From IMG/VR virus record IMGVR_UViG_2585427784_000004, positions 1-17,409 of that record: a DNA stretch of 17,409 nucleotides; one strand, written 5' to 3'. Shown here in pieces: positions 1,242 to 13,148 of this stretch (its first letter is position 1; the number at the start of each line of letters is the position of its first letter). A model generated the notes under the pieces. That model searched no databases and had not been told where the DNA came from. It saw nothing but the letters and a program-made list of their open reading frames with translations. This stretch comes from a virus. Taxonomy: Duplodnaviria; Heunggongvirae; Uroviricota; Caudoviricetes. Both the position numbers and the translations under genes were made by a program.

Positions 1242-1433
1242 TTATCGTGAGTTTTTAGTACAGATTTTTTTGGATTTACTAATAGTTCCATCATTGCAAA
1301 CGAATTTGCCATCAGAGGTACAGTGAGAAACACCTCCCTTTTTCCCTGAGCAGGGATAATTTCTAGCATAGGTAGCTAGTGGGTTTAATAACAAAGAACA
1401 TGACAAAACCACAAAAAATACCTTACCAAGCAT
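1242..1433 (-). CDS. Small (63 aa) predicted secreted, Cys- and Lys-rich protein of unknown function, sitting between cI and int
   Basis: ATG (rc of 1431-1433) preceded by GGGAGG with about 5 nt spacing. N-terminal hydrophobic signal-like segment [23 protein letters not shown], then [40 protein letters not shown]. Local DNA is AT-rich relative to int and cI. Confidence 0.5.
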
Positions 1434-1448
1434 AATTTCCTCCCGGTA

Positions 1449-2018
1449 CTATTTAACATACTTGACTGTTAAACTTATAATTTTACCAATTATTTCAATG
1501 TCTTCTATCTTACATTCAAAGGCTCTGTTTCCACCCTCGACGAAGATTCTTCCACCGGGTAAACGAGTAATGTCACGGATCGTTATTTCGCCATCAATAC
1601 TTATTACCCATTTACCATCACGTATATCATCAAATTCCTTATCACAAATAAATTCAGAATTATTATCTGTGATTACAAAAAGATTCTTGAATGCCGACGG
1701 TAGAAATTCTCTATCGAAAATATAAAAACCGTCTTCACACAAGGCCCCATCAGATAATACATATTTAGCAACTTCCATAGTATTTGTATTACCTGAAGTT
1801 TGCTTTGAACCATGCCCGGTTGTGAGCCAATTAAGCGAGGTGCCTGTTTCAAGGGCGCACTGGATTACCCATTCTGCTGGGAATGAGTCACGCATGTAGC
1901 GTGTGGCGAGTGTACTTTTAGAGATTCCTAAATGATCGCACAACGCCTGTCGAGTCTTGAATCCATAAGCTTCTACCATGCGCTCTATGGCGCCTCGTCC
2001 GCCTTTCTCCAAATTCAT
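1449..2018 (-). CDS. cI: Phage 186-type CI immunity repressor (N-terminal HTH, C-terminal oligomerisation domain)
   Basis: 189 aa from ATG (rc of 2016-2018) with GGAG upstream. Sequence ...AYGFKTRQALCDHLGISKSTLATRYMR...CALETGTSLNWLTTGHG... fits the Phage_CI_repr family pattern. Divergent from the cox/apl-cII operon. Confidence 0.85.
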   Translation of the reverse strand: MNLEKGGRGAIERMVEAYGFKTRQALCDHLGISKSTLATRYMRDSFPAEWVIQCALETGTSLNWLTTGHGSKQTSGNTNTMEVAKYVLSDGALCEDGFYIFDREFLPSAFKNLFVITDNNSEFICDKEFDDIRDGKWVISIDGEITIRDITRLPGGRIFVEGGNRAFECKIEDIEIIGKIISLTVKYVK

Positions 2019-2042
2019 GGTCACTCCAAGTGAACTTTTATC

Positions 2043-2071
2043 TTGACGATTTCACTGTGCGATCGTATGTT
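2043..2071 (+). promoter_or_regulatory. Candidate rightward lytic promoter (pR-like): TTGACG - 17 nt - TATGTT, in the cI / apl switch region
   Basis: -35 TTGACG at 2043-2048 and -10 TATGTT at 2066-2071. Flanked by inverted hexamers GTGAAC (2030-2035) and GTTCAC (2078-2083) that could be operator half-sites. Position is upstream of apl/cII. Confidence 0.35.
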
Positions 2072-2143
2072 TATGGTGTTCACAAAATACAAACGATCCG
2101 TATTCGTCCTGATTAATCATCATTAAACGAGGAATGTTGCATC

Positions 2144-2365
2144 ATGAGACCTAACATTTCAATCACTCTTACCACGCCTCATGTGACTATTGAACGCTAT
2201 AGCGAGCTGACAGGGCTATCCATCGATACCATCAATGACATGTTGGCTGATGGACGCCTTATCCGTCACCGTCTGCGCAAAGATAAAAAACGCGAAAAAG
2301 TGATGATCAACATAGCAGCAATGACCGTTGATGCGCTTTCAGAATGCAATCTAAACCTTAATTAG
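2144..2365 (+). CDS. Cox/Apl-type excisionase and transcriptional regulator (small DNA-binding protein)
   Basis: 73-aa ORF, first gene of the rightward operon immediately opposite cI. GAGGAA 9 nt upstream of ATG 2144. Basic C-terminal half ([15 protein letters not shown]). Assignment rests on position and size in the 186/P2 switch, not on a verified alignment. Confidence 0.65.
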
Positions 2366-2397
2366 TTCGATTCTGAAATACATCAGAGGCATTGACC

Positions 2398-2907
2398 ATG
2401 TTTGATTACCAAGTTTCCAAACATCCACATTTTGATGAAGCCTGTCGTGCATTTGCACTGCGCCACAATCTGGTGCAACTGGCAGAACGTGCAGGCATGA
2501 ATGTGCAGATTCTGCGGAACAAGCTGAACCCAGCTCAGCCTCATTTATTAACCGCACCAGAAATCTGGCTGCTTACCGATCTGACTGAAGATTCAACGCT
2601 GGTAGATGGTTTTCTGGCACAGATTCATTGTCTGCCATGTGTACCGATTAATGAGGTGGCAAAAGAGAAACTGCCACATTACGTCATGAGTGCAACCGCA
2701 GAGATCGGGCGTGTTGCTGCAGGTGCGGTGTCTGGCGATGTAAAAACCTGTGCCGGTCGTCGTGATGCTATCAGCAGCATTAACTCTGTAACACGACTGA
2801 TGGCGCTGGCGGCTGTTTCATTGCAGGCCCGTTTACAGGCTAATCCTGCGATGGCGAGTGCAGTTGATACCGTGACTGGCCTCGGTGCTTCATTTGGTTT
2901 GCTGTGA
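2398..2907 (+). CDS. cII: Phage 186-type CII (lysogeny-establishment transcription activator)
   Basis: 169 aa from ATG 2398 (GAGG 9 nt upstream). Sequence [49 protein letters not shown]...[26 protein letters not shown]... matches my recollection of the 186/Fels-2 CII family. Same size as 186 CII. Confidence 0.8.
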
Positions 2908-2914
2908 GGTGCTT

Positions 2915-3115
2915 ATGCTGACGAAAGAACCATCATTTGCATCGCTGCTGGTTAAACAAAGCCCGGCAATGCATTACGGTCACGGCTGGATCATGGGGGA
3001 GGATGGTAAACGCTGGCATCCGTGCCGTTCACAAGATGAATTGCTGGCAGAACTATCTACGAAAAAACGGGGGAACAAATGGCTATTGAAGGCACTGCGG
3101 CGACTGTTCCATTAA
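2915..3115 (+). CDS. Small early-region protein (66 aa); position corresponds to 186 fil (host cell-division inhibitor), identity not verified
   Basis: ATG 2915 preceded by GAGG (2906-2909). The ORF-track start at 2885 is a GTG and less likely. Immediately downstream of cII. Confidence 0.5.
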   Translation: MLTKEPSFASLLVKQSPAMHYGHGWIMGEDGKRWHPCRSQDELLAELSTKKRGNKWLLKALRRLFH

Positions 3116-3420
3116 GCCCCGGTGAACGCCTGAATGGACTTAATCACATTGCGGAGTTAAGGGCGAAAGTTTTTGGCCTGAATATTGAGTCAGAGCTTGA
3201 GCGGTTTATTAAAGATATGCGTGATTCACGGGATATTAATAGCGAACAAAATAAACGGGCACTGGCTGCCATATTCTTTATGGCAAAAATTCCAGCTGAA
3301 CGTCATAGCATCAGCATTAATGAGCTGACCACTGACGAAAAGCGGGAGTTGATTAAAGCAATGAATCATTTTCGTGCAGTGGTGAGCTTATTTCCCAGAC
3401 GGCTAACCATGCCGAATTAA
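3079..3420 (+). CDS. Hypothetical early-region protein (113 aa)
   Basis: ATG 3079 with GGGGGA upstream. Overlaps the 3' end of the preceding ORF by 37 nt in another frame. Protein-like composition (ELTTDEKRELIKAMNHF). No family recognised. Confidence 0.5.
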   Translation: MAIEGTAATVPLSPGERLNGLNHIAELRAKVFGLNIESELERFIKDMRDSRDINSEQNKRALAAIFFMAKIPAERHSISINELTTDEKRELIKAMNHFRAVVSLFPRRLTMPN

Positions 3421-3487
3421 CCAACTAATGAAATTAATGGCGTAAACCCGCCGGGCATCCCTTTATCTAAATTCAGGAGAATTGATT

Positions 3488-3721
3488 ATGCGTAATATTG
3501 AAACCCTCTCGACCAAAACCGGACCGGATGACGCAGGGCTTAATATTTTACTGACAGAGGCTCGTCTGGAAGAACGCCGGGCAAGGGCTGAAGCAATGGC
3601 AGCTCGCCTTGATAGCCTGGCGTGTCATATCACATCCCGCCAGCTAACCCACGTCGAAGCGGCAGAACTGCTTCGTGTGACTGCTGAAGCAATCCAGAAC
3701 GAAGCGCAGGAGATCCACTAA
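3488..3721 (+). CDS. Hypothetical early-region protein (77 aa), predicted helical
   Basis: ATG 3488 with AGGAGA 7 nt upstream. The TTG at 3482 in the ORF track is less likely. Stop TAA overlaps the next start (TAATG). Confidence 0.55.
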   Translation: MRNIETLSTKTGPDDAGLNILLTEARLEERRARAEAMAARLDSLACHITSRQLTHVEAAELLRVTAEAIQNEAQEIH

Positions 3722-3948
3722 TGGCTGATGCAATGGATCTCGTACAGCAGCGCGTTGAAGAAGAACGCCAACGCCATATCCGTGCTGCCCGTGCCAAAAC
3801 GCCGGGCGTGTCCCGCGTGCTTTGCATTGAGTGTGAAGCGCCAATTCCGCCAGCACGCCGCCGTGCCATTCCGGGTGTGCAGCTTTGCATTACCTGTCAG
3901 GAAATCGCAGAGCTGAAAGGCAAACATTACAACGGAGGTGCTGTATGA
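3721..3948 (+). CDS. TraR/DksA-family C4 zinc-finger protein
   Basis: 75 aa with CIEC...16 residues...CITC spacing (CxxC-N17-CxxC-like) typical of the TraR/DksA zinc finger. Start overlaps the upstream stop and the stop overlaps the dam start (ATGA), implying translational coupling. Confidence 0.75.
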   Translation: MADAMDLVQQRVEEERQRHIRAARAKTPGVSRVLCIECEAPIPPARRRAIPGVQLCITCQEIAELKGKHYNGGAV

Positions 3949-4802
3949 GCACCATCCTGAAATGGGCGGGAAATAAAACTGCCATAATGTCCGAACTAAA
4001 AAAACATCTTCCTGCTGGCCCGCGACTGGTTGAACCTTTCGCGGGTTCCTGTGCTGTGATGATGGAGACGGATTATCCCAGCTATCTGGTTGCGGATATT
4101 AATCCTGATTTAATCAACCTCTATAAAAAGGTTGCCGCTGATTGTGAATCGTTTATATCTCGCGCCAGAGTTTTATTTGAGATCGCAAACAGGGAGGTGG
4201 CTTATTACAACATAAGGCAGGAGTTTAATTACTCAACTGAAATTACTGATTTCATGAAAGCGGTATATTTCCTGTATCTCAATCGTCACGGTTACCGTGG
4301 TTTATGTCGCTATAACAAGAGCGGGCATTTCAACATTCCCTACGGTAATTATAAAAATCCATATTTCCCTGAAAAAGAAATTCGCGCATTTGCAGAAAAG
4401 GCCCAGCGAGCAACGTTTATCTGCGCCAGCTTTGATGAAACGCTGGCGATGTTGAAGGCGGGGGATGTGGTGTATTGCGATCCGCCGTATGACGGTACGT
4501 TTTCCGGCTATCACACTGACGGCTTCACTGAAGATGACCAGTATCACCTGGCATCTGTTCTTGAACATCGGTCATCAGAAGGACATCCGGTCATTGTTTC
4601 TAACAGTGACACATCCCTGATCCGTTCGCTGTATCGCAATTTTACTCACCACTACATCAAGGCAAAACGCAGCATCGGTGTGGCAGCTGGCGAGGGTAAA
4701 TCAGCAACAGAAATCATTGCTGTTTCCGGGCCGCGCTGCTGGGTGGGATTTGATTATTCGCGTGGCGTGGATAGTTCTGCCGTGTACGGAGTACGTGCAT
4801 GA
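3945..4802 (+). CDS. dam: DNA adenine (N6) methyltransferase, Dam-like (GATC class presumed)
   Basis: From ATG 3945 (GGAGG upstream): [11 protein letters not shown]... N-terminal motif, catalytic DPPY ([12 protein letters not shown]), and [20 protein letters not shown]. About 285 aa. The 20-codon upstream extension in the ORF track overlaps the TraR gene and is probably untranslated. Confidence 0.85.
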
Positions 4803-7213
4803 GTCATGCCGATATGAACAACTGCTGCGGCTTTAACGAAGCTGCCGCATCGTTCTCATGGAACAGCTCGAAAAAGGCCATTAACCCTTATCTGGACCCG
4901 GTGGAAGTTGCGCCGGTTTCTACGCTTTCAAACCTGATCACTCTGTACGCTGCCGATAACGAGCAGGAACAGCTGCGCCGTGAGGCGCTGAGTGATCAGG
5001 TCTGGGAGCGTTATTTCTTTAATGAATCCCGTGATCCTGTCCAGCGCGAAATGGAACAGGATAAGCTCATTAGTCGGGCAAAGCTGGCGCATGAGCAGCA
5101 GCGTTTTAATCCGGATATGGTCATTCTGGCGGACGTCAACGCCCAGCCTTCCCATATCAGCAAGCCGCTGATGCAACGTATTGAATACTTCAGCAGCCTG
5201 GGCAGGCCAAAGGCTTATTCCCGCTATTTACGTGAGACGATTAAGCCATGTCTGGAACGACTGGAGCATGTACGCGACAGTCAGCTATCTGCATCTTTTC
5301 GCTTTATGGCAAGCCATGAAGGGCTGGACGGCCTGCTGATCCTGCCTGAAATGAGTCAGGATCAGGTGAAACGCCTGTCCACCCTGGTAGCTGCGCATAT
5401 GAGTATGTGCCTTGATGCCGCTTGTGGCGATTTGTATGCCACCGATGACGTTAAGCCAGAAGAAATCCGCAATACATGGGAAAGGGTGGCAGCGGAAACC
5501 CTGCGTCTGGATGTCATCCCGCCTGCGTTTGAGCAACTCCGTCGGAAAAGAAACCGCCGTAAACCCGTGCCCTATGAACTCATTCCGGGTTCGCTGGCGC
5601 GTATGTTGTGCGCCGACTGGTGGTATCGGAAATTATGGAAGATGCGTTGCGAATGGCGGGAAGAGCAGTTGCGTGCTGTCTGCCTTGTCAGCAAAAAAGC
5701 ATCTCCCTATGTCAGCTATGAAGCCGTGTTGCATAAACGTGAGCAGCGCCGTAAGTCGCTGGAGTTTTTCCGTTCTCATGAACTGGTGAACGAAGACGGC
5801 GACACGCTAGACATGGAGGATGTGGTAAACGCCAGCAGCAGCAACCCTGCGCATCGCCGCAATGAGATGATGGCCTGTGTTAAAGGTCTGGAGCTTATCG
5901 CGGAAATGCGCGGTGACTGCGCCGTTTTCTACACCATCACCTGTCCGTCACGTTTCCATTCCACGCTAAATAACGGCAGGCCCAACCCGACCTGGACAAA
6001 TGCGACGGTAAGACAAAGCAGCGATTATCTGGTCGGTATGTTTGCTGCATTTCGTAAGGCGATGCACAAAGCCGGGTTGCGCTGGTATGGCGTGCGGGTG
6101 GCTGAGCCGCATCACGACGGCACAGTTCACTGGCACCTGTTGTGTTTCATGCGCAAAAAAGACCGCCGCGCCATTACAGCATTGTTGCGTAAGTTTGCTA
6201 TCCGTGAAGACCGCGAGGAGCTGGGCAATAACACGGGGCCGCGCTTTAAGTCTGAGCTGATTAACCCGCGCAAAGGAACGCCGACAAGCTACATAGCGAA
6301 ATACATCAGTAAGAACATTGACGGGCGTGGTCTGGCTGGCGAGATCAGCAAGGAAACGGGTAAATCTCTGCGTGATAACGCTGAATACGTGAATGCCTGG
6401 GCGTCTTTGCATCGTGTTCAGCAATTCCGCTTCTTTGGCATTCCGGGGCGTCAGGCTTACCGTGAACTGCGATTGCTGGCTGGTCAGGCGGTAAGGCAAA
6501 AGGGGGACAAAAAAGCAGGTGCGCCGGTACTGGATAACCCGCGCCTTGATGCCATCCTGGCTGCTGCTGATGCTGGTTGTTTTGCCACCTACATCATGAA
6601 GCAGGGCGGCGTACTGGTTCCCCGTAAATATCACCTCATCAGAACCGCTTATGAAATCAACGAAGAGCCGACCGCCTATGGCGATCACGGCATTCGTATT
6701 TATGGCATCTGGTCACCCATTGCAGAGGGCAAGATCTGCACTCATGCAGTGAAGTGGAAAATGGTTCGTAAAGCCGTTGACGTTCAGGAGGCGGCAGCCG
6801 ACCAGGGCGCTTGCGCCCCTTGGACTCGTGGCAATAACTGTCCCCTTGCTGAAAATTTGAACCAACAAGGGAAAGACAAATCAGCTGATGGGGACTCCAT
6901 AACGGATATTACCCGTATGAATGACAAGGAGTTGCACGATTACCTGCACAGTATGAGCAAAAAAGAGCGCCGGGAACTGGCTGCAAGGTTACGCCAGGTG
7001 AAACCGAAACGGCGTAAAGACTACAAACAGCGAATTACAGACCATCAGCGACAGCAGCTCGTCTATGAACTGAAGTCCAGGGGATTTGATGGCAGCGAGA
7101 AAGAAGTCGATTTGCTCCTTCGCGGCGGCAGTATTCCGTCAGGAGCAGGCCTGCGTATCTTCTATCGGAACCAGCGTCTGAAGGAAGATGATAAGTGGCG
7201 GAACCTGTATTAA
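4799..7213 (+). CDS. Replication initiation endonuclease gpA (rolling-circle HUH nickase, P2/186 A family)
   Basis: 804-aa ORF. HUH-type motif TVHWHLLCF (H-W-H at 6128-6136) and paired catalytic tyrosines YIAKYISK (Tyr codons 6290-6292 and 6302-6304), as in P2 gpA. ATG overlaps the dam stop. Confidence 0.9.
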
Positions 7214-7307
7214 TTACGCGGGTTAACAATTCGTGCTCTTAATAATACCAGGCATATCAGGCCGATGAACGTAAAAAAACGTTTTACATCAGTAAGATTA
7301 TTATATA

Positions 7308-7323
7308 CTGTAAATATAAACAG
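7308..7323 (+). promoter_or_regulatory. LexA (SOS) box CTGTAAATATAAACAG overlapping the promoter of the tum/dinI-like operon
   Basis: Exact CTGT-N8-ACAG palindrome with an AT-rich centre, 43 bp upstream of the first ORF. -10-like TATACT at 7304-7309 overlaps its 5' edge. Analogous to the LexA-controlled p95-tum arrangement of phage 186. Confidence 0.6.
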
Positions 7324-7365
7324 TGGTTATGCATACAGTATTGTTTTGGTGTCATAGGAGGAAAG

Positions 7366-7554
7366 ATGCAGGACTATTTTTTGGAGTCTTTGAAGCTCCA
7401 GCGCATTGATTTTTTTCTTAAGCTTGTAGCGGCTAGTGAGTGTAGTGATGAAGAGAAGGGGCTGGCTCTGCAGTGGGTTTCTGAACTGACAGATGAACTC
7501 ATGGCAAAAATCAGAAGCCACGAATACAACCGCTCAATGGATGTCATCAGCTGA
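7366..7554 (+). CDS. Small protein (62 aa) in the SOS operon; possibly the N-terminal part of a Tum-like antirepressor
   Basis: ATG 7366 preceded by AGGAGG (7356-7361). Directly downstream of the LexA box. Ends 10 nt before the DinI-like ORF, whose reading frame is already open from 7493. Confidence 0.5.
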   Translation: MQDYFLESLKLQRIDFFLKLVAASECSDEEKGLALQWVSELTDELMAKIRSHEYNRSMDVIS

Positions 7555-7564
7555 GGTGACTTTT

Positions 7565-7798
7565 ATGCGCATTGAAATAATGATCGATAAAGAGCAGAAG
7601 ATTAGCCAGTCTACCCTGGACGCCCTTGAATCCGAGCTTTACCGCAATCTGCGCCCCCTGTATCCCAAAACGGTAATTCGCATTCGCAAAGGTAGCTCTA
7701 ACGGTGTGGAACTAACCGGACTGCAACTGGATGAAGAAAGAAAACAAGTGATGAAAATTATGCAGAAGGTGTGGGAGGACGACAGCTGGCTGCATTAA
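7565..7798 (+). CDS. DinI-family protein (SOS-regulated RecA modulator / Tum C-terminal-like domain)
   Basis: 77 aa from ATG 7565 (GAGGTG 5 nt upstream). MRIEIMIDKEQKISQSTLDALESELYRNL...RKQVMKIMQKVWEDDSWLH aligns by eye with E. coli DinI (MRIEVTIAK...DALAGELSRR...KQRISEILQETWESADDW). Confidence 0.8.
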   Translation: MRIEIMIDKEQKISQSTLDALESELYRNLRPLYPKTVIRIRKGSSNGVELTGLQLDEERKQVMKIMQKVWEDDSWLH

Positions 7799-7806
7799 GA
7801 AACGTT

Positions 7807-7840
7807 GCCCCCAGGAGGATTCATTCTGATGGGGGCTAGT
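7807..7840 (+). terminator. Weak candidate hairpin after the DinI-like gene
   Basis: GCCCCCA (7807-7813) pairs with TGGGGGC (7830-7836) around a 16-nt loop, followed by TAGTTTGG. The loop is long and the U tract poor. Confidence 0.25.
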
Positions 7841-8204
7841 TTGGGTAACGAGTGAAACGAGGCGTAAGGTGGGCGGCCATTTTGATAAGTGATTGTACGA
7901 TTTGTGTTGTGAGTTCAACGGGTCGATGCAACGCTATCCTTAATCAAGGGCACGTTGCTCATACCCATCGATGCAATGAAAATCCATACTCATGGGGAAG
8001 ACCAGAATGTCCCTGCCTTTTTCATTTTGTTCAGCACATGCACTATGGCCATTGCCTTCCCAAGCTAGCTATCGTAATCACTCAGCGTCAGTAAACTACT
8101 GAAAAATTGTTTTACCTTGTATATCAATAATGCCAAATCATACCCAAAAAATAGAAAATAATTAGATCGACAGGCAGAAGGCAATGTGAATAATCTTAAA
8201 AACC

Positions 8205-8234
8205 TTGACTGCCAGTGAGGTTTGGTTCTATAAA
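8205..8234 (+). promoter_or_regulatory. Candidate sigma70 promoter for darT-darG: TTGACT - 18 nt - TATAAA
   Basis: -35 TTGACT at 8205-8210 and -10 TATAAA at 8229-8234, about 30 nt upstream of the darT RBS AAAGGATGAG (8251-8260). Confidence 0.4.
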
Positions 8235-8265
8235 TAGACTTACGACTTTGAAAGGATGAGTTGAA

Positions 8266-8847
8266 ATGAGCGAAAGGAAAAGAATTGAAGATCAGTATCT
8301 TCTCTATCATTTAACATGTATGGATAATCTACCTAGTATTTTAGACACAGGATTAAGATCTCGTGCATCAGTAAAAGGTGAGTTTGTTGATGTGGCCGAC
8401 GGTGAAATAATAACAGGACGCGAAGCATTAAATTTGCAAACAATGGTTCCTTTTCATTTCTTTACTAAGAATCCATTTGATGGAAGAGTCCTGAAAGATC
8501 ATAAGGAAAAATCATTTTGTATTATTTCGGTTTGTCGGGCATTTGCCAAAGAAAATGGTTGGAAAGTTATCCCTAAACATCCATTATCCACCAGTTCTGT
8601 TATAGACCTCTTAGATTATGAACAAGGAATGGCCCAAATTGACTGGGAGCTTATGAATATAAGGGATTATAAAAATGCAGAATGCAAATCTGTATGTATG
8701 GCTGAGTGTTTATCAAGTGTAACGGTCGAGCCGAAAAATTTCCATTGCATCTTTGTCAAAAATGATAACGAAAAAAAATATGTTGAAAGGTTGATAAAAC
8801 AACAAGGATTAAGTATATTGATAACGATCAACACTTATATGTTCTAA
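8266..8847 (+). CDS. darT: DarT-like DNA ADP-ribosyltransferase toxin (DUF4433-type)
   Basis: 193 aa. N-terminal LLYHLTCMDNLPSILDTGL matches the DarT hallmark (..YH.T...NLP.IL..GL) as I remember it from Thermus DarT, and a C-terminal ...CMAECLSSV... Glu-containing motif sits where the catalytic Glu would be. Followed 4 nt later by a macrodomain gene. AT-rich codon usage. Confidence 0.75.
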   Translation: MSERKRIEDQYLLYHLTCMDNLPSILDTGLRSRASVKGEFVDVADGEIITGREALNLQTMVPFHFFTKNPFDGRVLKDHKEKSFCIISVCRAFAKENGWKVIPKHPLSTSSVIDLLDYEQGMAQIDWELMNIRDYKNAECKSVCMAECLSSVTVEPKNFHCIFVKNDNEKKYVERLIKQQGLSILITINTYMF

Positions 8848-8851
8848 TTCT

Positions 8852-9823
8852 ATGATTAAGTATGCAAGCGGAAATCTTCTAAACTCTACATCGCAAGCTC
8901 TTGTGAATGCTGTAAACTGCCAAGGAGTCATGGGAAAGGGTATTGCTTTGGCTTTTAAAGAAACTTTTCCCTATAATTTCGAAGTTTATAAGAGAGCATG
9001 CGCCACTGGTACAATGAAAATTGGACAGGTTTTAATTGTAGAGGAAAAGGGAAAAATAATTGTAAACTTTCCCACTAAAGATAGTTGGAGAAAAAAATCA
9101 ACATATGATTTTATCTCGCAAGGCCTTGAATCTTTAGCAAAAATTATAGACGAAAAAAAAATTACATCAATATCAATACCACCTTTAGGCTGTGGTAATG
9201 GGGGCCTCGATTGGAATAAGGTTGAGGCTCTTATTTTAAAAACTTTTCAAAATTTAGATAATGTTGATGTGGTAATTTATCCGCCTGCAACTAACAATCA
9301 ACTTTCAAAAAATAAAAATGTTATTAATGCTAAGCATCTTTTGGTTCACTACGCCTATGGAAAATTAAAAGTTAAGCAAAAATATTCCCTTTATACAGTT
9401 TTTTATATTTGCGAATGTATTGAGAAAGCAAATCTTTTTTTATTCGATTTTAAACATGGTCGGCCATACTCTTCTGAGTTAGAAAATATTATGAAGGATA
9501 TAGCAAACCTTAAAGTTGAGTTGCAAGGAGATTTTGATGCTTTTATTGAAGATTATATTAATACTCATCAATCCAAAGAGTTACAAACCGAGTTTGGTAA
9601 ACTAATCTCAACTTTAAATCCAAGTATAAGTTTGCTCAATGCTCTTAAAAATAAGATTGATTATACAGATAGCGTACATGTGATTACGAGAATTGCTAAA
9701 GAAAAAGATCATGGCTTGCATATTGACAATTTCAAAGAATATGAAAATATTGTGCAGCATTTAATTAAAAATGGATTGGTAATCGAAGATATTTTTAACG
9801 AACTAAAAATAAAGGGAAGTTAG
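8852..9823 (+). CDS. darG: DarG-like antitoxin: N-terminal macrodomain (ADP-ribosyl hydrolase) plus C-terminal domain
   Basis: 323 aa. The first ~150 aa carry macrodomain signatures (NAVNCQGVMGKGIALAF..., ...ISIPPLGCGNGGLDWNKV...). The C-terminal ~170 aa is helical and K/E-rich, consistent with a DarT-binding domain. Gene order toxin then antitoxin. Confidence 0.8.
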   Translation: MIKYASGNLLNSTSQALVNAVNCQGVMGKGIALAFKETFPYNFEVYKRACATGTMKIGQVLIVEEKGKIIVNFPTKDSWRKKSTYDFISQGLESLAKIIDEKKITSISIPPLGCGNGGLDWNKVEALILKTFQNLDNVDVVIYPPATNNQLSKNKNVINAKHLLVHYAYGKLKVKQKYSLYTVFYICECIEKANLFLFDFKHGRPYSSELENIMKDIANLKVELQGDFDAFIEDYINTHQSKELQTEFGKLISTLNPSISLLNALKNKIDYTDSVHVITRIAKEKDHGLHIDNFKEYENIVQHLIKNGLVIEDIFNELKIKGS

Positions 9824-10375
9824 TAGCGCTATTTTCAATTTTTTTGCTGAAATTGCGCATGCACACTCTCACGCATTATAGATGCGGCGTTAATCCCGCC
9901 AGGAGTGTTGTTTAATAAATTGAACTATTTCTGCATTGAAGGATCAACTTACGCATTCGCTGACAACGCAGGCACTCTCCTGGCTAAGCAGAAATTCAGA
10001 GTAACCAACTGGCACTTTTACAACAATTTTATTATCAGTTGCGGCTCCATGACTTTCTGGTGGGATAACAAAGCAATTAAGGCGTGGTATTGTAAGTATC
10101 CCGCATAATCATGCTAGTAACATTTGTCCCCCATGTAACCTAATTAAGGCAACTTCCGCTCTTCGCTCACAGTGAACCTCCATGTTTGTAAACCCGTATA
10201 TTTCGTTTTTTAAGTGGTCATTCAGATACGGATTTTCACTTCTCTTGGCTGTGCATGACTATGCTGCATGAAATTGCATGATCGTTTGAGGATCGTTTTT
10301 GCTGAGGCCCCCCAGAACTGGCGGGCTTTCGCTTATGTCATGCAGGTGCATGAAAATCACTGCATAAAGCGGGCA

Positions 10376-10394
10376 GGCGTGGCGGGGATACGAG
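10376..10394. other. cos-like motif (possible remnant of the cohesive-end site)
   Basis: GGCGTGGCGGGGA (10376-10388) is identical to the first 13 nt of the 186 cohesive end as I recall it (GGCGTGGCGGGGAAAGCAT; P2 GGCGAGGCGGGGAAAGCAC), then diverges. Upstream are five TGCATGA-like repeats (10252-10370) that could be terminase-recognition elements. Rests on recalled sequences only. Confidence 0.25.
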
Positions 10395-10477
10395 CGCGCG
10401 CTGGAGGGATAAATGGAATTGAAAATGTACCTTCTTAGAGATAACCTTCGCTAAAACTTTATTACTAAGGAGTGATA

Positions 10478-12220
10478 ATGAGTACCTGGAACCAAGCCTA
10501 TTCTGCAAGAGAAGATTTGAAATCGTATGGTGATAATGGACTGGCTTTGTTTGCGTTAGCATTACATTTCAGAATTGATGACATTGATAGTGTCGCAGCA
10601 GAGTCCATTACCGATGGACATGACGATAAGAAATGTGACCTTGTGTATATTAATGAAGAAGAAGAATTTGCTGTACTTGCTCAATGCTATTTCTCAAGCA
10701 AAGATAGACAGGAAGCTCCAGCAAATAAAGCGAGTGATCTTAATATTGCTTTAGCATGGCTTCTGCAAAGAGATTTGCATGATGTACCCGATAGAATAAA
10801 ATCTTCTGCTCAACAGATACGGACATCAATCAAACAAGGGAAAATTAAAACTCTGTACGTTTGGTATGTTCATAACTTACCATCTTCAACAAATGTGGCT
10901 CAAGAGCTAATTACGGTTCAGCAGACAGCAACAACTATTTTAAAACATGATTTTGAAGATGCTAAAATACAAGTGCATGCAATGGAAGTAGGCACTGAAA
11001 AGTTGACGGAATGGTATAGTGAATCACTATCACCAATACTGGTTGATGAGATTTTCAATATTAAAGTCAGTGATGGTGGCTATGAAATAAAAGGAGATAA
11101 TTGGAATGCATTCTGTACTACCATTCAGGGAAGAGATTTAGCTAGAGCGTACAAAAAGCATAAATTAAAAATATTTTCAGCAAATGTTAGAGACTACCTT
11201 GGATCAAGGTCATCTGATTCAAATATCAATAATGGTATCCGTAACAGTGCGGAAAATTCAGCATCAGAATTTTGGGCATACAATAATGGCGTAACTGTTT
11301 TGGTTCATGAATATAAATTCAATGAAGCATCAAAGAATCTTGAAATCAGAGGGATGTCAATAGTTAATGGAGCACAGACAACAGGTGCTTTAGGAACGCT
11401 GCCACGATTACCTCCAGAATCAGTTAAAGTCCAAGCTAGATTTATAAAAGTCAAAGATGCGGATGCTGATCTAATTCAGAATATAATTCAGTATAATAAC
11501 AGTCAGAATAAAGTTGAAGCATCTGATTTCAGAAGCACAGACAAAATTCAAAAACGACTTAAAAATGAATTTGCTTCTATTCCTGATGCTGAATATGATG
11601 GAGGAAGACGAGGAGGTGCTGAAAGTGTCATTCGTCGAAAAACTAATCTACTGCCTTCTTATACTGTTGGTCAAGCTTTGATGAGTTTCCATGGAGAGCC
11701 GACGGTAGCTTATAATCAGCGATCTGCAATTTGGACTAATGACTCTCATTATTCTAAGATTTTTAATGACAGTACAAAAGCTTCACATATTGTTTGTGCG
11801 TATTCTCTCATGCGGTGTATTGAGAACAAGAAAATAGCTTTGGCAAAGAAAGATACTCTTTCAAAAAATGATAGCGCTCAATTGGGATATCTCAGGCATC
11901 GTGGTTCAATACCTTTATTGTGCTCGGCTATTGCCGAATGTTTGGAAAACTTTTTGGGCCGTCCCGTTCCTAATTTATTTAGAGTTTCGTTTGGAAGTAC
12001 GGTTTCTCCTTCTCAGGCTGAAAGTATTTGGGAGCCAATTGTAGATGTGTGTCTGGCTTTAAGTAATCAGTTGCTGCCTGCACTGGTTGAAGGAGGGTTG
12101 AAAAGTCCTACAAAAGTTAAAGATTGTATATCAAATTTTTCACAGCTTATTACTGCAACGGCCCAAATGAACCAGCCTGTATATGAGGCATTTGAGAAAA
12201 AAATCAAATCCGCATTCTAA
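10478..12220 (+). CDS. 580-aa orphan cargo protein; candidate single-gene abortive-infection/defence protein, tentatively AIPR-like
   Basis: ATG 10478 with TAAGGAG upstream. Long, clean ORF with AT-rich codon usage. Internal motifs FWAYNNGVTVLVHEY and MSIVNGAQTTGALG resemble what I recall of AIPR / DGQHR-type Abi proteins; the N-terminal segment is acidic (DGHDDKKCDLVYINEEEEFAVLAQ). Followed by a strong terminator. Family assignment is unverified. Confidence 0.8.
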   Translation: MSTWNQAYSAREDLKSYGDNGLALFALALHFRIDDIDSVAAESITDGHDDKKCDLVYINEEEEFAVLAQCYFSSKDRQEAPANKASDLNIALAWLLQRDLHDVPDRIKSSAQQIRTSIKQGKIKTLYVWYVHNLPSSTNVAQELITVQQTATTILKHDFEDAKIQVHAMEVGTEKLTEWYSESLSPILVDEIFNIKVSDGGYEIKGDNWNAFCTTIQGRDLARAYKKHKLKIFSANVRDYLGSRSSDSNINNGIRNSAENSASEFWAYNNGVTVLVHEYKFNEASKNLEIRGMSIVNGAQTTGALGTLPRLPPESVKVQARFIKVKDADADLIQNIIQYNNSQNKVEASDFRSTDKIQKRLKNEFASIPDAEYDGGRRGGAESVIRRKTNLLPSYTVGQALMSFHGEPTVAYNQRSAIWTNDSHYSKIFNDSTKASHIVCAYSLMRCIENKKIALAKKDTLSKNDSAQLGYLRHRGSIPLLCSAIAECLENFLGRPVPNLFRVSFGSTVSPSQAESIWEPIVDVCLALSNQLLPALVEGGLKSPTKVKDCISNFSQLITATAQMNQPVYEAFEKKIKSAF

Positions 12221-12224
12221 CTAA

Positions 12225-12256
12225 AAGAAGGCCTTGTAAGAGGCCTTCTTGATATT
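12225..12256. terminator. Rho-independent terminator, probably bidirectional, between the 580-aa gene and the convergent portal fragment
   Basis: Perfect 10-bp stem AAGAAGGCCT (12225-12234) / AGGCCTTCTT (12241-12250), 6-nt loop, then GATATTTTA. An A run lies on the opposite side. Confidence 0.6.
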
Positions 12257-12281
12257 TTACTGATCAGCGAACATATTGTCG

Positions 12282-12662
12282 TCATAATGAGTATGTCGCA
12301 AAACGGATAATTTCATCTTTCAACCATCTATTTAGTTCCTGTAGCCGTTTCTGTAGCGGCATCAATTCGTTACGAACAAAAACGCAACTGGCTTTCTCTA
12401 CATCCCCAAACCCTCCAACATTATTAGGCATAATCCCCATCATCTGAGGCGGCACACGGTGTGCCGCCATCATGTCATCGCGGCTGACATTTTTGATATT
12501 CAGAAACTCATCCTTCGCCGCGACTTCTGATATCTGGCGGTATTGCCCGTCTGCGCACAGCAGGCCGGGGGCCAGATTGCTGTGGGACAGGTCGATGTCC
12601 ACCTTATCGGCTTTGTTGCGCCCACGGTTGAACAGCGCACCGGACCAGAACGGATACGACGC
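12282..12662 (-). pseudogene. C-terminal fragment (~125 codons) of the phage portal gene (gpQ-like); N-terminal two thirds deleted
   Basis: Minus-strand frame open through 12282-12746. Protein-like C-terminal sequence ...RVPPQMMGIMPNNVGGFGDVEKASCVFVRNELMPLQKRLQELNRWLKDEIIRFATYSL. The first 28 codons of the tracked ORF are antisense to gpU and not credible. Orientation and position next to cos match P2 Q. Portal identity is from memory. Confidence 0.5.
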
Positions 12663-13148
12663 ATGATGATGGTGCTGGGATTGTACGTGTTTATGCTGCG
12701 CACCGTGCCGTATCAGGAGCTGCAGTATCAACGCAGCTGGCGACATGCGGCAAACAGCCGGGTAAACCGACGTCCGTCCACGCAGTTTCTGGGACCGGAC
12801 AACGACATGCTGACGCTTTCCGGTGTTCTTATGCCGGAGATAACAGGTGGCAGGCTGTCGTTGCTGGCACTGGAGCAGATGGCAGAACAGGGGAAAGCAT
12901 GGCCCCTGATTGAAGGCAGCGGCACGATTTATGGCATGTATGTGATTGAGGGACTGAATCAGACTAAAACGGAGTTTTTCCGCGACGGTATGCCGCGCCG
13001 GATTGAGTTCACCCTGTCGCTCAAAAGGGTGGATGAATCATTGTCCGATATGTTCGGTGATCTCAGTGCGCAACTGAATAATCTGCAGGACACGGCAACG
13101 TCTGCCTTAAGCGATATCAGTAAAACGGTGGGAGGGCTGCTGTCGTGA
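12663..13148 (+). CDS. Tail protein gpU (P2 U family)
   Basis: About 160 aa from the ATG triplet at 12663-12671. Sequence MVLGLYVFMLRTVPYQ...RSWRHAANSRVNRRPSTQFLGPDNDMLTLSGVLMPEITGG...EGSGTIYGMYVIEG... Stop overlaps the gpD start (GTGA). The 40 upstream codons in the ORF track are read-through over the portal fragment. Confidence 0.8.
   Translation: MMMVLGLYVFMLRTVPYQELQYQRSWRHAANSRVNRRPSTQFLGPDNDMLTLSGVLMPEITGGRLSLLALEQMAEQGKAWPLIEGSGTIYGMYVIEGLNQTKTEFFRDGMPRRIEFTLSLKRVDESLSDMFGDLSAQLNNLQDTATSALSDISKTVGGLLS

Follow-up and report, generated by a model that had tools for sequence, protein, structure and literature searches.

The window analyzed here, the whole 17,409-nucleotide stretch of IMG/VR record IMGVR_UViG_2585427784_000004, is a P2/Fels-2-like (Peduoviridae) prophage of Escherichia coli, reduced by deletion to a remnant between the chromosomal host genes rcdA and ybjL. 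It carries, in order, genes for an integrase, a 186-type cI, cII, Fil, a dam methylase, the replication endonuclease A, a 62-amino-acid protein and DinI, and then an island of accessory DNA; 3' of this island come a portal remnant, a gpU fragment, gpD, Ogr and host ybjL. The island, positions 7799-12281, is with high confidence a cos-proximal accessory hotspot, in which a cargo slot on the side of gene A (7809-10250) and a second one on the side of the portal gene Q (10403-12281) are separated by a core around the cohesive-end site cos (10251-10402). It lies between A (with DinI) and Q, cos falls inside it, and its cargo varies between near-identical flanks. The A-side slot is filled by a darT-darG pair and the Q-side slot by a single gene of the AIPR/AbiU type (Table 1).

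From its domain content, the A-side operon is a darT-darG pair of the macrodomain (DarTG2) type. The predicted toxin DarT scores 78 bits against PF14487 (cut-off 22.5), covers its PADLOC profile at full length (positions 5-195 of 196) and is encoded at a G+C content (GC) of 0.34 and a third-codon-position G+C content (GC3) of 0.28. Its one solved relative is chain 7omu (26 bits), whose MAACL aligns with the DarT motif MAECL at the candidate position of the catalytic glutamate; the protein crystallized as 7omu presumably carries a Glu-to-Ala change there. The gene for the predicted antitoxin, darG, starts 4 nt past the darT stop codon. Its product covers positions 1-313 of 329 in the PADLOC profile and 1-255 of 338 in that of NCBIfam, and by this coverage the C-terminal part, predicted to bind DarT, is present. 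Residues 1-148 align from residue 1 with the solved DarG macrodomains 5m3i (E = 3e-43) and 5m31 (E = 3e-37), which come from Mycobacterium tuberculosis and Thermus aquaticus, and the N-terminal domain is a DarG-type macrodomain, not a NADAR domain. RefSeq lists the DarG/macro protein with 297 amino acids in two entries (WP_050491752, WP_050488095) and with 323 in E. coli S40 (WP_016239483), a discrepancy found despite DNA that is 99.6-100% identical (window 8852-8929; L001 10553-10630; L169 7554-7631). Since the solved macrodomains align from residue 1 of the 323-residue form, the shorter calls probably lack 26 N-terminal residues. The putative darT promoter of Table 1 was placed by its consensus, and a promoter-scanning tool picked a different, weak site nearby (8167-8194).

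The arrangement of a DarT-domain toxin directly 5' of a DarG with an N-terminal macrodomain and a C-terminal extension is that of the DarTG2 systems of Thermus, M. tuberculosis and E. coli, which are defined by the macrodomain antitoxin and thereby set apart from DarTG1 (PMC11825919). In DarTG2, thymidine in single-stranded DNA is the target that DarT ADP-ribosylates; DarG undoes this modification, and together the two protect against phages (PMC11825919). By homology and this literature, DarG would strip ADP-ribose from DNA in the lysogen and hold DarT in check, and phage infection would release DarT to ADP-ribosylate single-stranded phage DNA and block its replication. The window's pair differs from known DarTG2 systems in being rare in E. 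coli: 10 of 5426 complete genomes hold it, all copies being at least 99.5% identical, and no more divergent darTG was found in that set. A search of deposited phage genomes and plasmids with the darTG DNA returned matches to the insertion sequence IS903 only. A unit of darTG together with scraps of an IS903-like element is about 90% identical at the nucleotide level in Rahnella inusitata (L090 1963-4675) and in a Kluyvera metagenome-assembled genome (L089 1884-7445). The Kluyvera unit adjoins a P4-type integrase and a DUF4365 gene, the Rahnella unit sits between housekeeping-type genes, both are outside P2 prophages, and both lie near a gene with a B3_4 domain.

The Q-side gene encodes a protein whose AIPR domain (PF10592) scores 120 bits against a cut-off of 25. 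It shares with lactococcal AbiU (AbiUi) and the AIPR family this domain and the form of a single large protein, and differs in that the match is confined to the central 220-350 residues; neither the N-terminal nor the C-terminal third has a match in Pfam or the PDB, and the whole protein has none in the PDB either. No partner gene lies between cos and the terminator, which makes the system a single-gene one. Its start is most likely the ATG at 10478, preceded by the Shine-Dalgarno sequence AAGGAG, and its 75-nt leader holds a weak TTGAAA-17-TAACCT match at 10419. The terminator that follows folds at -20 kcal/mol (z = -3.5), and none of 200 shuffled sequences folds as well. Klebsiella phages, as well as many E. 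coli prophages, have this gene at the same position. Identity with MzaE was considered and rejected, with 67 bits against a cut-off of 1050 and no neighboring Mza genes. Lactococcal AbiU is a single nuclease-like protein that delays phage transcription (PMC13064643), and by homology and literature the window's protein would be a separate abortive-infection effector, probably a nuclease.

Between the two cargoes lies a sequence that, by comparison with annotated relatives, is a cos of the P2/186 type, with positions 10376-10394 as the predicted cleavage site. The 19-mer agrees with the annotated cos at 15 of 19 bases in 186 and at 14 of 19 in P2, and both flanks match too. Salmonella phage SEN8 begins with the identical sequence (bases 1-19), annotated there as 'putative cos site', and the last base of the SEN8 record is the exact counterpart of 10375. 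The 152-bp core (10251-10402) was found in 74 of 80 surveyed relatives; these 74 IMG/VR loci keep the arm, and in 66 of them the 19-mer is invariant. What is conserved amounts to the 125-bp A-side arm, the 19-mer and 7 further bases (CGCGCGC), beyond which the sequences are unrelated. The arm is presumed to be the terminase-binding region. It also contains a hairpin (window 10305-10330), which in relatives (L011-L078) reads GCCCGCCA-gaac-TGGCGGGC followed by TTTT, and in the window has a mismatch in the stem and TTTC where the relatives have TTTT. This hairpin may be the terminator of the early operon.

Table 1. Features of the island and its flanks in the window (a dot marks features given without a strand)
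Feature	Position	Strand	Evidence
Replication gene A	4799-7213		
DinI-like gene, conserved left flank of the hotspot	7565-7798	+	Pfam DinI E = 1e-22; RefSeq annotation in sibling prophages
Mosaic non-coding junction DNA	7799-8011	.	Comparison with relatives whose A-side slot is empty
IS903-like (IS5 family) transposase 3' remnant, amino acids 277-314, with in-frame stop	8012-8125	-	blastn 75% to IS903B 1020-907; tblastn 58%, E = 2e-9
darT upstream region with ribosome-binding site and putative sigma-70 promoter: TTGACT (8205-8210), 18 nt, TATAAA (8229-8234)	8126-8265	+	Region and motif kept in Kluyvera and Rahnella copies
darT, predicted DNA ADP-ribosyltransferase toxin, 193 amino acids	8266-8847	+	PADLOC DarT E = 1e-36; Pfam PF14487; alignment to 7omu
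darG, predicted macrodomain ADP-ribosylglycohydrolase antitoxin, 323 amino acids	8852-9823	+	PADLOC DarG E = 3e-80; solved macrodomains
Non-coding stretch 3' of darG	9824-9904	.	Part of the ~90% identical unit common to Rahnella
IS903-like left end: terminal inverted-repeat region and transposase amino acids 8-52	9905-10090	+	73% to IS903B 49-235; tblastn E = 4e-13; phrog_2262 transposase
Relic non-coding DNA	10091-10250	.	10093-10172 common to the Rahnella/Kluyvera darTG flank; 10151-10250 to other P2 hotspot variants
Conserved cos arm, right end of virion DNA, with repeated GCATGA motifs and terminator-like hairpin	10251-10375	.	Kept in relatives; aligns with P2 cosR-proximal sequence
Predicted cos cohesive-end 19-mer GGCGTGGCGGGGATACGAG	10376-10394	.	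Comparison with P2, 186 and SEN8
CGCGCGC(T), the last conserved bases (to 10402), then cargo-specific AIPR leader with Shine-Dalgarno sequence (10467-10472)	10395-10477	+	
AIPR/AbiU-type single-gene abortive-infection protein (predicted), 580 amino acids	10478-12220	+	Pfam AIPR; PADLOC AbiU E = 1e-34; phrog_1841 E = 3e-245, full length
Hairpin terminator between the convergent AIPR and portal genes	12225-12250	.	11-bp stem
Decayed right flank: portal 3' end (12282-12532) and terminase ATPase fragment (12531-12656)	12282-12656	-	blastn against L001; partial Pfam Phage_portal match

The island consists of two independently assorting cassettes, one on each side of cos, and not of a single cassette. 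In close relatives the flanks are 96-99% identical and other cargo lies inside. E. coli S40 shares window positions 1300-10402 (99.5% identity), after which three other genes precede its portal gene. Klebsiella phage ST11-VIM1phi8.4 matches the window as far as 7796 and again over 10253-12532, with a different gene in between; homology to the Klebsiella phage L003 stops at 7796. For 19 of 59 loci the distance from DinI to cos is a minimal, 'empty' 203-204 bp, with values of up to 4.5 kb in the others, and against relatives with an empty A-side slot the window's A-side cassette extends from 7809 to about 10250, replacing some 80 bp. On the other side, the portal stop codon is 180-3531 bp from cos, and more than 400 bp in 73 of 74 IMG/VR relatives, compared with 167 bp in P2 and 176 bp in 186. 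Clustering gave 55 types of Q-side cargo and 22 of A-side cargo; the 60 loci show 55 distinct combinations of them, and each type on the A side occurs with different Q-side types. The window's own cassettes behave alike: darTG recurs in L061 and L069 with other Q-side cargo, and L009 and L010 combine the AIPR cassette with different A-side cargo. Among complete E. coli genomes, darTG occurs with at least four Q-side states (AIPR; three hypothetical genes; five hypothetical genes; empty). The sequence-only reading had taken the block for a swapped accessory cassette at a phage hotspot. The hotspot is documented and its cargo does vary between conserved flanks, but the swapped unit is not a single cassette; nor is the block conserved core in the relatives' alignments, apart from the cos core at 10251-10402.

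Homologous recombination between P2-like genomes resident in the same cell is the most likely means by which each slot is swapped; the crossovers would use three conserved anchors (DinI/A, the cos core and Q). Breakpoints are located at the stop codons of DinI and of the portal gene and at the cos core, in keeping with homologous exchange, and slot swapping through the three anchors would give rise both to the independent assortment and to the AT-rich, foreign character of the cargo. Several points weigh against this account of the island. The recombination at the three anchors is itself deduced from the breakpoint positions. DarT reaches 54.2 bits where the NCBIfam equivalog cut-off is 150, and DarG 230.4 bits where it is 250; falling below both cut-offs, they are filed as a divergent pair of the DarTG family and not as equivalogs, which is a further difference from the established DarTG2 systems. 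The proposed thymidine specificity follows by analogy from the macrodomain partner, and toxin activity and phage defense by darTG are likewise predictions from homology. Promoter scans gave no consensus promoter for the AIPR gene. More generally, the promoters, the cleavage at cos and the toxin activity are assigned by homology, and protection against phages by the cargo is predicted from profile matches to defense families. Finally, random capture followed by homologous exchange does not explain a strong bias in how the Q-side cargo is oriented.

In the slot between cos and Q, 102 of 104 open reading frames (ORFs) of at least 100 amino acids (69 distinct sequences, L009-L088) read from cos toward Q. 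A-side cargo is mixed in orientation, with 27 in one direction and 23 in the other. Past cos, the leaders are short: their median length is 120 nt, and some measure 37-70 nt, 37 being the minimum. It is conceivable, albeit very unlikely, that the cos-Q slot is not a passive landing pad and that its cargo must be transcribed away from cos. A possible cause of the bias is a promoter that overlaps the joined cos and is intact only in the circular or integrated genome; such a promoter would tie expression of the cargo to lysogeny. A scan of the cos arm for a conserved sigma-70 promoter gave none matching 9 of 12 positions, and the best candidates were not conserved. Another possible cause is a special role of that genome end when the DNA enters the cell.

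Much of the remaining DNA of the island is debris. The bases 7799-7808 (GAAACGTTGC) are kept after the DinI stop codon, and divergence from relatives with an empty A-side slot begins 10 nt past it. Positions 7809-7907 are a leader common to other variants of the hotspot; 7799-7907 is about 90% identical to the post-DinI DNA of Ecol_224, and positions 7886-7959 are the left-end region of an IS30-family element, with 7886-7958 being 86% identical to DNA just upstream of an IS30-family transposase pseudogene in JJ1887. The IS903-like remnant that follows (8012-8125) is kept together with darTG in Rahnella and Kluyvera, and the counterpart of the second one (9905-10090) is labeled an IS5/IS1182 pseudogene by RefSeq in S40 and TUM2820. 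The window holds no intact IS903; transposase residues 277-314 (with the stop) and 8-52 with the left end are what remains. No terminator-like site was found in 9824-9904, and a search for direct or inverted repeats bounding the island gave short chance matches only. As darTG occurs with both IS903 scraps outside P2 prophages in Rahnella and Kluyvera, the scraps are older than the arrival of the cassette in the hotspot.

It is possible, though unlikely, that these scraps are the decayed ends of a composite transposon of the Tn903 type that once carried darTG, a history compatible with slot swapping. Like IS903 in Tn903, the two fragments, 73-75% identical to IS903B, are inverted around the cargo, the left one pointing leftward and the right one rightward; in Rahnella both are found alongside darTG, about 90% identical and longer (residues 263-322 and 8-55), and in part they are found in Kluyvera. 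The differences from Tn903 are that the window's pieces are dead remnants of 114 and 186 bp, one of them with an in-frame stop, and that the window has neither an intact transposase nor a pair of terminal repeats. Neither copy is intact anywhere in the data, and a target-site duplication is not definable. Moreover, the homology between the P2 prophage and Rahnella/Kluyvera extends past the remnants, to 7952-8024 on one side and to 10093-10172 on the other, which points to entry into the P2 hotspot through recombination of a larger segment and not through transposition.

The composition of the island fits foreign cargo set into a conserved frame. GC is 0.368 for 7799-12260 and 0.490 for the rest of the window (z = -14), and the 4462-bp stretch of lowest GC in the whole sequence begins at 7881. 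GC3 is 0.24-0.28 in the three island genes and 0.58-0.61 in A, the portal gene, D and host ybjL. The proposal that the island is more AT-rich than the flanking prophage genes is borne out on both measures, by which it is distinguishable from the rest of the prophage, but it holds for two coding units and not for the whole block. A sliding-window profile is AT-rich from about 8000 to 12400 and is broken at 9800-10600 by a bump of GC 0.41-0.46; the AT-rich DNA resolves into 8091-9904 (GC 0.327) and 10403-12281 (GC 0.371), while 7799-8090 (GC 0.479) and the cos core (GC 0.546) depart from it. A shorter AT-rich patch (GC 0.34-0.38) occurs at 1001-1800, over the intergenic region between the integrase gene and cI, a 63-amino-acid ORF and cI. 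One may ask whether the low GC is a selected property, such as silencing by H-NS or promoter-rich DNA, and not a mark of recent foreign origin. Cargo in relatives is generally AT-rich, with median GC of 0.35 and 0.40 in the two slots, and a shared constraint is thus possible. This explanation is nevertheless distinctly unlikely, as GC3 values of 0.24-0.28 point to the mutational background of a donor and not to regulatory constraint, the closest relatives of DarG outside Enterobacterales are mostly in low-GC Bacteroidota, and the same darTG unit is found in unrelated contexts in other genera. Selection for low GC and the foreign origin favored here are not mutually exclusive.

The island is also unusually sparse in genes, with a coding density of 73.5% compared with about 92.5% in the early region. 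Its two gaps measure 467 and 654 bp, and the longest other intergenic gap in the prophage is 188 bp, so that the sequence-only reading was right to call them atypical. The end that it gave for the second gap fits the probable AIPR start at 10478; the first one runs from 7799 to 8265 and not to 8204. Three kinds of content had been suggested for the gaps, of which a packaging signal (cos) and recombination scars (IS903-like, IS30-family and mosaic DNA) are there, and regulatory RNAs found no backing. That the gaps encode functional regulatory RNAs or small proteins, for instance an antitoxin RNA or a regulator of a defense gene, instead of scars and cos, is highly improbable, although they are far longer than other intergenic regions of the prophage and two of their ORFs resemble known families. 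One of these, ORF 7852-8094, has a sub-threshold zinc-finger match. The other, ORF 10268-10438, matches phrog_28685, a family of unknown function, with its residues 1-46 (E = 1e-27). As a gene this ORF was rejected: it overlaps the cos arm, a stop at codon 22 truncates it in 36 of 75 relatives, and the similarity goes no further than the cos boundary; phrog_28685 was probably built from spurious ORF calls over cos. All gap ORFs were scanned with PHROGs, Pfam and PADLOC, and the others are frames of the IS903 remnants or have no homologues. Rfam, scanned permissively over 7200-12800, gave no credible match, the sole one (E = 0.5; 26 bits against a gathering score of 229) falling over the terminator. 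The gaps fold no better than shuffled controls, with z-scores of -1.4 (7799-8011), -0.9 (9824-9904) and 0.0, the terminator being the sole exception, and identifiable scraps cover most of the gap DNA. The non-coding DNA of the island is not a new functional element; it is made up of the packaging site with its arm, short leaders and promoters, and dead scraps.

Barely credible is the literal form of the sequence-only reading, in which a single acquisition brought in everything from DinI to the portal gene as one accessory cassette: the two AT-rich gene blocks do adjoin and occur together at 99-100% identity in E. coli 2018-18.25PC, but darTG is found without AIPR in S40, TUM2820, L061 and L069 and AIPR without darTG in Klebsiella phages, L009 and L010, the conserved cos core is where breakpoints lie (10253 and 10402), nearly every A-side type is paired with a different Q-side type, and the many unrelated partner cargoes speak against secondary deletions of a common darTG+AIPR ancestor.

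The prophage around the two slots is decayed. E. coli 2018-18.25PC (NZ_AP023286) carries an intact sibling (L001), 98.6-99.2% identical over the early region and the whole island, in which full portal and terminase genes come after the island. By this comparison the window's copy has lost its structural genes, and cos is therefore a relic in this strain. The 'portal fragment' of the sequence-only reading does contain the portal 3' end, but ORF 12282-12746 is not purely portal; it is a chimera of that end (251 bp), a terminase piece (126 bp) and then other sequence. Across 12282-13148 the portal and terminase pieces are followed by a gpU fragment and then by intact gpD and ogr. The window's exact deletion junction is absent from the 5426 complete E. 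coli genomes. An independently decayed P2-like prophage occupies the same rcdA/ybjL site in E. coli APEC O78 (NC_020163, 2585-15750; L008); its portal fragment is fused to a tape-measure fragment, and it keeps int, cI, A, the hotspot (with a hypothetical gene and a TIR gene), D and ogr. This prophage is common to many O78-type genomes. The two remnants arose by different deletions and retain the same gene set. A second variable spot lies between the dam methylase gene and A (window 4721-4915, compared with L001 5637-6616), where L001 and APEC O78 have an extra gene for a 273-amino-acid hypothetical protein and a different A 5' end. The cargo of such a decayed prophage would persist as host-resident defense genes. 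It is even conceivable, though very unlikely, that a P2-like helper phage can still mobilize the 14.6-kb remnant (int, cI, A/ori, cos, cargo, D, ogr), which would then behave as a satellite-like defense island.

The locus is of a kind already described, and an ordinary example of a known phenomenon. The cos-proximal gpA-gpQ locus of P2-like phages is an established defense hotspot with 1,650 arrangements in E. coli, and many of its loci hold more than one system (Rousset et al. 2022, PMC9122126). Table S5A of that paper lists DarT + Macro + DinI arrangements (WP_032293991, WP_050491752, WP_016239482) as well as AIPR arrangements; the DarT + Macro accessions are those of the window's sibling prophages, which leaves little novelty. 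AbiU is counted among the defenses of P2 and P4, and defective P2-like elements with defense genes are discussed, in a second study (NAR 2026, PMC13586616). The region between cosL and Q has been noted as a pick-up site in P2-like phages, with the suggestion of a hotspot credited to Dodd & Egan 1996 and Nakayama 1999 (PMC5694545). The window resembles the old/tin hotspot of P2 in its position after the replication gene and DinI, adjoining cos and before the portal gene, and P2-like hotspots in general in its hypervariable, AT-rich content and anti-phage systems. It differs in that all P2 cargo (old, tin) lies on the A side, with 167 bp from cos to Q, whereas the window and 73 of the 74 relatives also have cargo between cos and Q. 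Foreign genes between the left cohesive end and the portal gene are also found in Ralstonia phage phiRSY1 and Salmonella phage SEN8 (PMC5694545); the latter has the identical 19-mer and two genes in the slot, where the window has a single AIPR/AbiU gene. In the text consulted, PMC9122126 and PMC13586616 treat the locus as a single hotspot, and a cos-centered description with two slots that assort independently is not spelled out there. Such a description is a refinement and not a new system.

Taken together, what remains of interest at this locus is its cos-centered architecture of two slots and the near-absolute orientation of the cargo between cos and Q. For annotation, it follows that an AT-rich, gene-poor block next to a P2-like portal gene is to be read as cos with two cargo slots, and the 'empty' DNA there as a packaging signal and recombination debris. 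The locus is a textbook instance of temperate phages carrying and shuffling anti-phage systems. Even in its decayed state, the prophage would still give its strain two apparently intact defense systems, one of which, darTG, is rare in E. coli.

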